Below are positions 35,423-43,524 of a stretch of 64,000 nucleotides of DNA, piece after piece. The stretch's first letter is position 1. Each line of letters opens with the position of its first letter. The stretch comes from Bdellovibrionales bacterium (lineage in GTDB: Bacteria > Bdellovibrionota > UBA1018 > CAIMNF01): contig JBEIJY010000006.1 of assembly GCA_040380025.1 (NCBI GenBank), positions 1 through 64,000 of the forward strand. The letters run 5' to 3'. Below the pieces are notes generated by a model that searched no databases, had not been told where the DNA came from, and worked only from the letters and a program-made list of their open reading frames with translations. The position numbers were made by a program, and so were the translations under genes.

Positions 35423-35529
35423 ACTTCAGTCCTTTGGTCTTAAATTTTTTGGAAACCTTGTTTTAACGGATCAGTTGGGTATTTGTCAACCAAACGATCC
35501 ACCAAAACCTTTGTCAGCCCCCGGAGGTC

Positions 35530-37008
35530 ATGCTAGCTTCCTTCTACTCATTCGCAACTAGGACCGAATCATTGATGAATCCGACACAAAACCTTTGGGC
35601 ATCGACGTACCAGCACATCCTGAACCATCACCCGGAACCAAACGAGGTGCGGTTTTGGCTCGATTCATTGGCCTGGAGCCGTGCGGACCGTCTCGGTCCG
35701 GGGCGGATCCAGGTGTTTTTGTCCGCTCCCAATCAGTTTTATAAAAACTTCATTCAAACCACCTTCAAAGGCGAGATCGAAACCGCGATCTGCACGCTCA
35801 TCGGCGAGGCTTGCGAGGTGGTCATCGAGGTTCAACGGGAGGCCGACCGCACCCCCGAAAATACGCCGGTAATTCAAGAGCTTGCGATCGATCCCCTCGC
35901 ACCCCCGACCGAGATCGAATCACGTCCTCCCCCTCCCTCCCGTCCGGTTTCGTCTTTCACCTCTTCTTCTGCTTCGCCTCCGAGAATGGTGCTCGATGAC
36001 CATCTCGATCGGAGCCTCACGTTTGACAACTACATCGTCGGTCCCTCGAACCAATTCGCCTATGCTTCGGCGTATTCCACGGCCGAGAACCCCGCAGTTC
36101 AATTCAATCCCTTGTTCATCTACGGGCCGCCCGCCGTCGGTAAAACCCATCTCCTTCACGCCATCGGAAACCAGATCAAACGGCGGAATCCGGGGATCCG
36201 CGCCTATTTCGTGTCGGCCGAAAAATTCGTGAACGAGTTCATCGAGAGCATCCAGCACAAAAAACCGGGTGATTTTCGTTCAAAATACCGCGAAAACGTC
36301 GACCTCCTCCTGATCGACGACGTGCAGTTCATCGTCGGAAAAGACCGCTCCGAAGAAGAATTCATTCACACCTTCAACACGCTCCACAGCATGAAGAAAA
36401 TGATCGTGCTGACCTCGGACAAAGCCCCGAAGGACATCGACGGGTTGGAGGAGAGGATCCGGACACGGTTCGAGATGGGGCTCGTCGCCGATATCCGCCC
36501 GCCCGAAATCGAGACGCGGATTGCGATTTTGAAGGCGAAAGCCGAGTCCGATGACATCTATCTTCCCGATGAGGTGGCGACCTTTCTTGGCACCTATGTG
36601 AAGGATACGGTGAGGAATTTGCACGGGGCCCTCGTTCGGCTTCAGCAATACGCCTCGCTTACCGGTTCCGAGATCACCCTCGATTTGGCCAAACAAGTCC
36701 TCCAGAACACCATTCCCGAGGAAGGCCAGGAATATACGGTCGAGATGATCCTGAATGCGGTTGCAAAGCACTTCAATATCCGCATGAAGGACCTGAAAGG
36801 CACCTCCCGGGCCAAGAACTTCGCCCTTCCACGGCAAATCGCGATGTCCCTCATTCGAAGGTACACCAAACTCGGGTTCCGCGAGATCGGCGACATTTTC
36901 GGAAAAGACCATTCCACGGCGGTCCACGCCTCTCGCAAAATCGAATCCGAAATCGAAACCGATCTCGAACTGAAGCGGAACGTGGAAGCGATTCGGGAAC
37001 AGCTCTGA
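35530..37008 (+). CDS. dnaA: Chromosomal replication initiator DnaA
   Basis: FNPLFIYG...GKTHLL, LIDDVQF, KDHSTAVHA; alternative start 35575. Confidence 0.97.
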   Translation: MLASFYSFATRTESLMNPTQNLWASTYQHILNHHPEPNEVRFWLDSLAWSRADRLGPGRIQVFLSAPNQFYKNFIQTTFKGEIETAICTLIGEACEVVIEVQREADRTPENTPVIQELAIDPLAPPTEIESRPPPPSRPVSSFTSSSASPPRMVLDDHLDRSLTFDNYIVGPSNQFAYASAYSTAENPAVQFNPLFIYGPPAVGKTHLLHAIGNQIKRRNPGIRAYFVSAEKFVNEFIESIQHKKPGDFRSKYRENVDLLLIDDVQFIVGKDRSEEEFIHTFNTLHSMKKMIVLTSDKAPKDIDGLEERIRTRFEMGLVADIRPPEIETRIAILKAKAESDDIYLPDEVATFLGTYVKDTVRNLHGALVRLQQYASLTGSEITLDLAKQVLQNTIPEEGQEYTVEMILNAVAKHFNIRMKDLKGTSRAKNFALPRQIAMSLIRRYTKLGFREIGDIFGKDHSTAVHASRKIESEIETDLELKRNVEAIREQL

Positions 37009-37015
37009 GCGAACC

Positions 37016-38383
37016 ATGATTGATTCCTCTTTTTATAAAAAAGCCATCCTGATTTCTTTTTTCGCGAAGTGGTTTTTCTACACGATCCACAGTCTGCTTC
37101 CGCTTCATCAAAACCACTTCTGGAGGCAATACGACACGCTCGGGGTGAGTATCCGGTACTTTCAGCGCTTTTTTCTATCGGGCGATCCGGAGCCTTTTTT
37201 TCTGAGATTCCTTCCGGCGGTCTTGCAAAGCGGGGAGTCCACAGGCATCAATCCGATGGAATTCCCGCTTTTGAATCTTGTCTCCGTGTTTTTTTGGGGA
37301 ATGGATTCGAAATGGTCCCGGATTTTGGCAAGTCTGCTGATTGTGACCGCCAATTATGGGCTTTGTTACTTTTTGTACCGGAAACGCGAAAAAAACGAAG
37401 GGATCGCTTATCTTCTGGTCCCCTTCGTCTCCTTTTCGGCTGAATATCTTTATAAATTCCTGCCTGATGTGACCGGCGCCCTGCTCGTCGCCTGTTCCGT
37501 GGTCTTTGCCCTCGAAAAACGACTGTTTTTGGCCTTTCTTTTTTGTTGCACCGGAGCGCTCATGAAGCCGCCTTCGCTTGCGGCCCTGTTTCTGCTTTTG
37601 TACTACCGGGACTCGCTGAAAGAGCTGATCCGGAAAGACTTTTTTTGGAGCGCTGCTGCGGGCGGGGTAGCGTTGTTTTATTATGTTTTCGGCTTGCAGT
37701 GGATGCGGAGTCTTGCTGACGGCGCCACCTTTTTTGTCGGTCCGAGGGATCCGCTCGAATCCTTGCGATCCACATTCTCCGATCCTCTCGGATTTCTATC
37801 TTTCCTGAATTTTCAGGGTGTCTATTGGGGCGGAACATCCCTCGCTTTGGTTCTTCTTTTTTTGATCGGAGTCCGTGGCCGCACTCCGAGACTCCTTGCC
37901 GTTTTTTTCTTGTCTGTCCTGTTCGTGGTAATTCTGGACGGACCGCACTCCTTGGTTCATAGCTACTACTATGCCGGGGCTTCGTTTTCAGTTTGCCTCC
38001 TTGTTCACGAATTGATTTGCTCCTTCAAGCCTGAAGTCCGGATCCAGAACTTGTTCATGGGGGCATTCATGGGCGCGACTCTGGTGATTCACCCGATCGA
38101 GCTTCTCATCCATGACTTCGGAGCGATCGGACAAACGCTCTCTGGCACCACCGAGGAAGACTTTTGTGATGAGCTGAAGCAATCCACCCCCGAATGGCCC
38201 TGGAACCAAAACCATGCCTTTCGGTCAGAGGACCTGCCCTTCCCTCAGCTCGGGGTATGCTTTCGAGAACGGGTCGGGGCAAGAACCTCCAAATTCGGAC
38301 TCTTTTACTCCAACTCACCCCTTCCGGCCGGGTGTTCTATCGAAAAACAGGTCGGAACCATCGTCTTAGCTAAGTGCATCTAA
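37016..38383 (+). CDS. Polytopic membrane protein, ArnT/PMT-like (GT-C) glycosyltransferase
   Basis: HFWRQYDT and MEFPLLN motifs, many TM segments, LPD, KP, HSYY. Confidence 0.65.
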   Translation: MIDSSFYKKAILISFFAKWFFYTIHSLLPLHQNHFWRQYDTLGVSIRYFQRFFLSGDPEPFFLRFLPAVLQSGESTGINPMEFPLLNLVSVFFWGMDSKWSRILASLLIVTANYGLCYFLYRKREKNEGIAYLLVPFVSFSAEYLYKFLPDVTGALLVACSVVFALEKRLFLAFLFCCTGALMKPPSLAALFLLLYYRDSLKELIRKDFFWSAAAGGVALFYYVFGLQWMRSLADGATFFVGPRDPLESLRSTFSDPLGFLSFLNFQGVYWGGTSLALVLLFLIGVRGRTPRLLAVFFLSVLFVVILDGPHSLVHSYYYAGASFSVCLLVHELICSFKPEVRIQNLFMGAFMGATLVIHPIELLIHDFGAIGQTLSGTTEEDFCDELKQSTPEWPWNQNHAFRSEDLPFPQLGVCFRERVGARTSKFGLFYSNSPLPAGCSIEKQVGTIVLAKCI

Positions 38384-38800
38384 GGTTATCCCCCAAATCA
38401 TTCACCAATCGTTGGTGGATTGTTTTTCTCTTTGATTTCAAATGACTAGCCAATCCATCCACCAGACCGGCGGATTGCTAAAAATTATCCACCAACAATC
38501 CACCAGCGATTCACCGCCCTGGTGGATAAATCCGGTGGATAACTTTGTCTGATTTTTTGATTTGAGTAGTCATAAAAAACTTATCCACGCGATTTGGTGA
38601 ATTGACCGGTGGATAAGTCCGAAAATCGGACTCTTTCTCCTCTTTCAGGAGTTATCCCCAAATTCACCATTTTTATCCACCTAGGGTTTTCAACCGGTTT
38701 TGAAACTAAAAACCGAACCGTTCTCTGGGCTTAGAAGGTTATCCCCCACATTCACACCACTAAGACTACTATGATCTTTATATATATCTATTTCTATGTA
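38384..38800. other. oriC: Replication origin oriC
   Basis: ~18 DnaA-box-like 9-mers in both orientations, CTA trio run at ~38760-38774, AT-rich tract, directly upstream of dnaN; gene polarity flips near here. Confidence 0.9.
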
Positions 38801-38828
38801 AGGGTATTTGCCATTCAAGGTGGTGAAC

Positions 38829-39932
38829 ATGAAGTTTGGCATTCAAAGGGATCAACTTTTATCTGCATTGCAAAAAATCTCCTCGGTGGTCGAAAAAAAA
38901 CACACCATGGAGATCTTGGGGAACATCCTCTTTGAAACCAAGAATGACAAACTCACCTTGAGCGGCACCGACCTTGAAGTAGGCATTCAGGTAAATCTCG
39001 ATGCCAAGATCGATGTTCCCGGAAAGCTCACCCTCTCCACCAAAAATATCCTCGATATCACCAAGGAACTTCCGAACCAGGTGATGCACTTCAATCTGAA
39101 GCCGAATCACTGGGTCGAGATCACCTGTTCCAAAGCCCGCTTCAATCTCGTCAGCATCAGTGCCGAGGGGTATCCCGGCCTCCCCTTGTTTGACGAAAAA
39201 ACTTATTCCACAACTCATTCGGAACGCCTGAGCGAGATGATCTCGAAGACGGAGTTTGCCGTATCAACCGATGCGACCCGGTATCACCTGAATGGTGTTT
39301 ACTTCGAGGTTCTTCCGAACGGCCTTTCGAGAATGACCGCAACGGATGGTCACCGGCTTTCGTACATCGATCACGAGATTTTCAGCAAACCGGTCGAATT
39401 GAAGCGCGGAGTGGTCATCCCGAGCAAGGGACTGACCGAGCTTCATAAGATGCTCCAGGGCACGAAGACGATCGGCCTTGCTTTCGAAAAGGGTTATTTG
39501 TACGCCAAAACCGAAAACTCCTACCTGTTCATCCGTCTCATCGAGGCGGATTATCCCGACTATCGCCAGGTCATCCCCCAGAGTCTCGACAAAGCGGCTC
39601 TTCTGAGACGCGAAGACCTTCTGGGAGCATTGAAGCGCGTATCCCTGATGGCCCACGAAAAAAGCAAGGGCGTGAAGCTGAATATTCAAGACAGCATGCT
39701 CACGGTTGCTTCCTCGAATCCCGAAATGGGAGAAGCCCGCGATGAGATCAATGCGAGCTACCAAGGGGAGTCCTTCGAGATCGGCTTCAATGCCAAGTAC
39801 ATCCTCGATTGCCTCGAGGTCATGCGCGAGGACGACATCGAGTTCCAGTTCAAGGACAAAACCAAGCCCGGCATCATTCAATCGGTGGCGAACAAGAACC
39901 ACTGCTATGTGATCATGCCGATGCGAATCTAG
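38829..39932 (+). CDS. dnaN: DNA polymerase III beta clamp
   Basis: GTDLE, ATDGHRL, YPDY, IGFNAKY, VIMPMRI. Confidence 0.97.
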   Translation: MKFGIQRDQLLSALQKISSVVEKKHTMEILGNILFETKNDKLTLSGTDLEVGIQVNLDAKIDVPGKLTLSTKNILDITKELPNQVMHFNLKPNHWVEITCSKARFNLVSISAEGYPGLPLFDEKTYSTTHSERLSEMISKTEFAVSTDATRYHLNGVYFEVLPNGLSRMTATDGHRLSYIDHEIFSKPVELKRGVVIPSKGLTELHKMLQGTKTIGLAFEKGYLYAKTENSYLFIRLIEADYPDYRQVIPQSLDKAALLRREDLLGALKRVSLMAHEKSKGVKLNIQDSMLTVASSNPEMGEARDEINASYQGESFEIGFNAKYILDCLEVMREDDIEFQFKDKTKPGIIQSVANKNHCYVIMPMRI

Positions 39933-39940
39933 CCTTCGGC

Positions 39941-43524
<3,584 letters not shown>

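Follow-up and report, generated by a model that had tools for sequence, protein, structure and literature searches.

The stretch analysed here (the window) comprises the first 64,000 nucleotides of contig JBEIJY010000006.1, from a Bdellovibrionales bacterium (assembly GCA_040380025.1; 2.35 Mb, 58% GC), and carries the gene for the replication initiator DnaA together with a putative replication origin (oriC) in which most DnaA-binding sites (DnaA boxes) end in C. The gene order, 5′ to 3′, is trmE-yidC-yidD-rnpA-like genes, dnaA, a 455-residue open reading frame, a 445-bp gap, dnaN, recF and gyrB, where all names other than dnaA and dnaN were read from the translations. dnaA (35530..37008, + strand, with a possible later start at 35575) encodes a protein of 492 amino acids that scores 459.8 bits against TIGR00362 (cut-off 343.9) and matches PF00308 and PF08299 above cut-off; it is a full-length initiator, with an AAA+ domain and a helix-turn-helix (HTH) domain IV. 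It is the sole DnaA ATPase-family gene found in the genome, in which no match to Hda was found. dnaN occupies 38829..39932 (+), and a box cluster lies just 5′ of dnaN throughout the class to which this genome belongs.

The probable origin and its reader protein

The gap at 38384..38828 is likely, from its sequence features, to be the chromosomal origin, and to be an ordinary origin with a variant recognition code. It has the features of a DnaA-dependent oriC, being a cluster of boxes in non-coding DNA near dnaA and dnaN, and it lies about 2 kb from the switch in GC skew (cumulative minimum at 40729, calculated on one 102-kb contig). When box-like sites were anchored on box positions 4–8 only, 17 were found in 38384–38790, of which 14 end in C and 2 in A; a preliminary description of this DNA had put the C-ending sites at 15 of about 18, so that the majority stands and the count is corrected. 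As that description stated, there are five exact copies of TTATCCACC, at 38485..38493 (+), 38521..38529 (−), 38534..38542 (−), 38608..38616 (−) and 38673..38681 (+), and no TTATCCACA anywhere in 38384–38828. The cluster does not follow the canonical R-type box TTWTNCACA, which has A at position 9. Base shuffling, repeated 5000 times, gave on average 2.8 sites, of which 0.6 ended in C (maximum 5), and exact TTATCCACC was present at most once. Across the genome there are seven exact copies of TTATCCACC, five of them in oriC, and two of TTATCCACA; oriC is also the densest cluster of T[CT]CACC in the genome, with 12 in 400 bp, where no other contig exceeds 5. The base following the 14 C-ending sites is A in 10, G in 3 and T in 1.

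The end of the gap nearest dnaN resembles a basal unwinding module (38739..38799, +), with two adjoining boxes at 38739 and 38748, imperfect CTA repeats similar to a DnaA-trio at about 38759–38775, and an AT-rich tract up to 38799. The repeats and tract were identified by eye, and relatives share the layout.

The box-reading surface of DnaA was compared with the Escherichia coli domain IV structure (PDB 1j1v) by alignment. E. coli numbering is used for the key position, 423, which is the Pro of ‘slpeig’ in 1j1v as placed by the residue spacing in PMC2533591 (papers given by PMC number are cited from extracts of their text). In this DnaA the position is occupied by Arg451 (codon CGC, 36880..36882, +), as the preliminary description had read it. 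It is the second residue of the first HTH helix, which spans residues 54–61 of a single-sequence model. That model has a predicted local distance difference test score of 74, and was used for helix boundaries and fold matches only; the top fold matches of domain IV are 3pvp, 8btg and 1j1v. The equivalent of the minor-groove reader R399 is conserved as Arg427 (36808..36810, +). At the start of the recognition helix (DHSTAVH, 36907..36927, +) D433, H434 and H439 are kept, with the substitutions T435S, V437A and L438V. The preliminary description had listed the last two, but neither T435S nor two further changes relative to 1j1v, R432K and the deletion of one Gly in the turn. P423 is among six residues listed as making base-specific contacts (PMC2533591, PMC5043019).

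Two further features lie near dnaA. Upstream (35483..35504, +) there are two degenerate C-ending box-like sites, each followed by A, which may possibly serve in autoregulation. The 455-residue reading frame between dnaA and the origin (37016..38383, +) is hydrophobic, has 7 non-self homologues and matches no family above cut-off; it is not part of the mechanism discussed below. Several relatives carry other, larger inserts at the same spot.

Residue 423 and box position 9 across the class

dnaN was located in 107 of the 125 genomes of the class, and 100 origin stretches were obtained, each taken from the 900 nt (or fewer) that precede dnaN or, in four genomes, from the sequence downstream of dnaA. 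Boxes were chosen on positions 1–8 only (at most one mismatch), position 9 was tallied, and each genome was scored as C/(A+C). Eleven genomes were dropped, ten because their A- and C-ending boxes numbered under four and one (G426) because its residue was not yet known (it was later found to be Gln, with A11/C0). This left 89 scored genomes: 22 with Arg at position 423, 45 with Lys, 15 with Pro and 7 with other residues. For G424, which has four dnaA-like genes, the full-length Lys copy was scored.

C-majority boxes occur only with Arg. The score exceeds 0.5 in 16 of the 22 Arg genomes and in none of the 45 Lys, 15 Pro or 7 other genomes, where the maximum is 0.25. The correlation between position 9 and residue 423 that the preliminary description had proposed to look for among relatives is thus present, and the counterexample it had named, relatives with Pro and ACC boxes, was not found (none of the 15 Pro genomes is above 0.25). 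The pooled boxes give A75/C139 for Arg, A535/C29 for Lys and A172/C7 for Pro. G and T at position 9 are not raised in Arg genomes (G6 and T16 against C139), which argues that position 9 is not generally relaxed.

The cleanest case is G029, whose recognition helix is identical to that of E. coli, which agrees with it as well at R399, D433, H434, T435 and H439, and which has Arg423 and C16/A2; G026, in the same supported clade, has Lys and A14/C0. Both G029 and G034 have DHTTVLHA, identical to E. coli, together with Arg and 85–89% C. Because these genomes are C-type without them, V437A and L438V are unnecessary and can be ruled out as drivers; the preliminary description was correct about the residue equivalents, and not about a need for them.

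Could base composition account for the pattern? On that explanation a pressure towards GC across the genome would have converted A9 to C9, with Arg, whose codon is GC-rich, as a by-product. The GC content of the window genome fits, as does the small C fraction of non-Arg genomes, which tracks local GC (rho 0.54). GC is nevertheless not the cause, because Lys genomes with a four-fold-site GC of 0.75–0.87 keep ACA (C fraction 0–0.25) and family f12 is C-type at 0.37–0.46; the C-type genomes G003, G034 and G008 stand at 0.35, 0.37 and 0.27. The comparison largely refutes GC pressure, which we regard as ruled out and give almost no weight.

Some other features of the survey are recorded here. Box positions 1–3 match the consensus in 55, 53 and 63% of cases in the family of the window genome against 81, 91 and 80% in Lys genomes. 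The form TTATCCCCA, with C at position 7, is frequent in many of the order's origins (for example G050, G065, G066 and G084) and makes up the majority in some genomes. G424 (L389, L392–L394), G041, G057 and G051 carry three or four dnaA-like genes, some of which are short (260–350 amino acids); among these genes one has Arg423 and one adjoins the origin. In G048 and G049 (L107, L112) DnaA has DYST for DHST, with His434 replaced by Tyr, and no canonical box cluster was found upstream of dnaN in G049.

A second locus and the base after the box

A module of three co-oriented boxes occurs far from oriC: the second box is at +21/22, followed by an IHF-like motif, and the third lies 78 bp further. 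Matches to the pattern occur in 74 of the 125 class genomes (matches at origins being counted in), and control matches were 0. The module, a candidate counterpart of E. coli datA (PMC5742627), resembles it in its three co-oriented boxes and in the IHF-like motif between the second and third; the IHF-like motif of this order is imperfect (strict match in 8 of 31). In this genome it lies outside the window, at G000:C3:173-281. It is found order-wide (also L581–L586 and L590–L610), about 185–500 kb from oriC in the five genomes where both are on one contig. This genome has four HU/IHF-family genes.

In 9 of 9 f1/f12 genomes (Arg was confirmed in seven) the middle box reads TTATCCACC with A next. 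Where residue 423 is known and is not Arg, a hand count over 49 genomes gave no middle box ending in C (48 A, 1 T). A C-ending middle box also occurs in G422, which has no assembled dnaA. Since this distant box switches in step with the origin, the code change appears to be genome-wide, as expected if the protein that reads the boxes has changed.

The third box behaves differently, ending in A in 7 of 8 f1/f12 genomes, this one included. This bears on the suggestion of the preliminary description that initiator and origin are a co-evolved and possibly orthogonal pair. The association of Arg423 with C9 holds, and orthogonality, by which this DnaA would no longer bind TTATCCACA and a canonical DnaA could not use this origin, is not supported; we consider it very unlikely. 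Several f1 origins do lack an A-ending box (for example G017, 0/17, and G018, 0/6), and there is a precedent in the mutually incompatible boxes of Thermotoga maritima and E. coli (PMC13643167). Against this, C-type genomes retain the A-ending third datA-like box, the window origin itself holds two A-ending sites, other Arg genomes run origins with ACA boxes, and T435S is the only departure from the canonical residues at the other five base-reading positions. Orthogonality of the T. maritima type, in which an initiator's own boxes exclude the canonical box, is therefore not what is seen here.

The base immediately after the box (position 10, or +1) also differs. The median fraction of A is 0.61 in Arg genomes and 0.25 in others, and all seven Arg units lie above the non-Arg median, those that keep A9 included; at +2 the fractions are the same (0.42 and 0.41). 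Of the 139 C9 boxes in Arg genomes, 87 are followed by A, 33 by G and 19 by a pyrimidine; of the 39 in non-Arg genomes, 2 are followed by A and 22 by G. These comparisons were made post hoc. In a held-out Arg genome, G1144, 13 of 17 boxes are followed by A and the remaining 4 by G. A C9 followed by A is a 5′-TpG step on the bottom strand, and Arg is described as binding 5′-YpG-3′ by hydrogen bonding to the G and stacking on the pyrimidine, a mode found in HTH and other proteins (PMC3074128). The purine it calls for after C9 on the top strand is what Arg genomes mostly have, again on the post hoc counts.

We weighed whether Arg simply drops discrimination at position 9, making a backbone contact only, with C then spreading by drift or copying among boxes, aided by local GC. 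The wide range of Arg lineages (0.12–1.0) fits such a relaxation, as do the rise of the C fraction with GC outside the boxes within f1 (rho 0.54, p 0.036) and the more AT-rich composition of Arg origins that keep A (0.33 against 0.41). It does not predict that G and T would stay flat while C rises, that f12 would reach 85–89% C at its low four-fold-site GC, or that the distant datA-like box would turn to C as well, and a preference for A at +1 is unexpected from loss of a contact. Relaxation is thus unlikely, though it is the strongest of the competing explanations.

A direct reading is more probable than any of these. We favour as likely the explanation that Arg451 reads base pairs 9–10 directly, favours C-A and tolerates A, and that, having been derived from Lys, it opened the way for box rewriting in some lineages. 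On TTATCCACCA, Arg451 would hydrogen bond to the G and stack on the T in the 5′-YpG-3′ mode. The Lys-to-Arg change would have come first and been permissive, and the boxes would have been rewritten afterwards in some lineages and not in others.

Ancestry, parallels and meaning

A tree was built from DnaA domain III, DnaN and GyrB (105 rows). The outgroup and the basal families have Pro at residue 423, most of an 86-row clade has Lys, and six changes are needed to account for Arg; the path in this order appears to have been Pro to Lys to Arg, rather than Pro to Arg directly. C-majority origins sit in family f1, family f12 and G058, and arose two or three times, all on Arg branches. The number is given as two or three because approximately unbiased (AU) tests separate G058 from both f12 (p = 0.010) and f1 (p = 0.026), but do not split f1 from f12. 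With RecF included, a single C clade is rejected (AU p = 0.006, 27 rows). Arg branches make up 9.8% of the tree length at risk, so that the chance of all origins falling on them is about 0.01 for two origins and about 0.001 for three.

Some other residue or protein could set the preference for C, with Arg451 as a correlate or in need of a partner. The insufficiency of Arg, set out below, would fit this, and one column of the AAA+ domain, D304 of this DnaA, is common to f1, G029 and G058 and rare elsewhere. D304 failed on the held-out genomes G034 (C-type, Leu) and G1144 (A-majority, Asp), which rule it out as a second site, and among random triples 11% have some rare residue in common. Among the columns compared, those from residue 151 onwards, no further one is both common to the three C lineages and found in fewer than 25% of A-type genomes. 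A different determinant is accordingly improbable, rather more so than relaxation.

Several observations weigh against a direct reading by Arg451. Arg at 423 is not sufficient for C-majority boxes: Arg genomes outside the C lineages are mostly A (G050 0.12, G077 0.12, G021 0.21, G084 0.31), G1144 has a C fraction of 0.31, and the f1 members G005 (0.38) and G004 (0.50) keep many A-ending boxes. In G050, G077 and G084 the datA-like middle box is ACA, with A next in one of the three. The signal at +1 is post hoc, and G1144 is probably not an independent check of it because it resembles G084 (the same downstream gene). On the tree, a single C clade is not rejected without RecF (AU p = 0.13, 31 rows), nor is f1+f12 as a single clade (p = 0.20); there are just 4–6 independent pairs, so that p < 0.05 is unreachable, and none opposed the C-majority trait. 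E. coli L422 and P423 also act in Hda binding (PMC5742627, where they are numbered 423/424). Finally, a metagenome locus, L207:2739-3268, has an origin upstream of a dnaA with Gln423 and mixed boxes (C8/A6/T4), which indicates that, beyond this class, a gain in C does not require Arg. DnaA of L207 has Asn at the H439 position, and its C is usually followed by G.

L207 came from a scan of metagenomes for paired ACC boxes, which gave at least 119 loci, many of them coding repeats of Tyr-Pro-Pro. Among the matches listed, five have a dnaA domain IV, none of them with Arg423, and two of the five have dense clusters (L207 and L171, the latter with Lys and A15/C3). Metagenome box arrays with about equal ACA and ACC and no dnaA in view are found at L169, L133, L225 and L159. 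A DNA pattern for Arg-type dnaA, which recovers 18 of the 21 known Arg genomes of the order, found none in a further 315 genomes of the phylum, 301 of the phylum of L019 and 301 of the phylum of L017. ACC pairs matched 46 of 335 genomes of the phylum outside the class; 39 of the 46 were inspected and none was beside dnaA or dnaN, in a scan of low sensitivity (3 of 10 known C-type origins). Viral domain IV homologues (80 loci and 7 pattern matches) gave no usable cognate clusters.

One metagenome locus, L185:1495-1735, is a Dependentiae-like origin, flanked by a uracil-DNA-glycosylase-like gene and by nusA, with two opposed 11-bp arrays. In this locus, picked by its ACC pattern, 7 of 8 boxes end in C and 8 of 8 are followed by A; the relatives of its NusA are named Babeliales or Dependentiae. 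Chromulinavorax is reported to have a canonical box (PMC6561590). If the rule for residue 423 holds, origins of this type are predicted to go with Arg at 423. The stronger claim, that residue 423 is a one-letter switch at which Arg makes the 3′ end of the box C-A, repeatedly in this order and in Dependentiae, and that one substitution would retarget any DnaA, is possible, and we put it forward tentatively, with more doubt than belief.

Comparison with known systems places the change. Relative to E. coli domain IV on the R1 box TTATCCACA (1J1V), the HTH fold, R399, D433, H434 and H439 are kept and box positions 1–8 are equal in the best sites; the differences are Arg for Pro423, T435S, boxes that end in C usually followed by A, and looser positions 1–3. 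The oriC of the related Bdellovibrio bacteriovorus (PMC5124646) also has relaxed 5′ positions (consensus NN(A/T)TCCACA), and that paper describes positions 4 and 6–9 as conserved among the bacteria it compares, whereas position 9 is changed here. The epsilonproteobacterial variants (PMC5043019) are likewise a lineage-specific box change ascribed to domain IV residues. They concern position 5 and helix 5, and the authors considered variation at 423 (Pro/Leu) probably not responsible. In Thermotoga maritima DnaA (PDB 2z4r) an Arg aligns at 423 and the 12-mer box ends in CCACC (PMC10316083, PMC13643167), a parallel that lends weak support to the link between Arg423 and C; there, by contrast, helix 5 is rewritten, the consensus, as redefined, is a 9-mer that lacks the final C, and the system is orthogonal to E. 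coli.

In the literature searched, from whose coverage key structural papers were absent, we found no report of a link between residue 423 and position 9. The prior view was that position 9 is conserved and that variation at 423 is probably irrelevant to specificity; the repeated natural experiment described here ties the two together. It also suggests a route by which an essential initiator and some 15 sites could be recoded without a lethal gap, through a tolerant Arg intermediate and later rewriting of the boxes. If this is true, origin finders could predict the box from the DnaA sequence, and residue 423 would offer a gentler means of retargeting DnaA than the domain swap with T. maritima.

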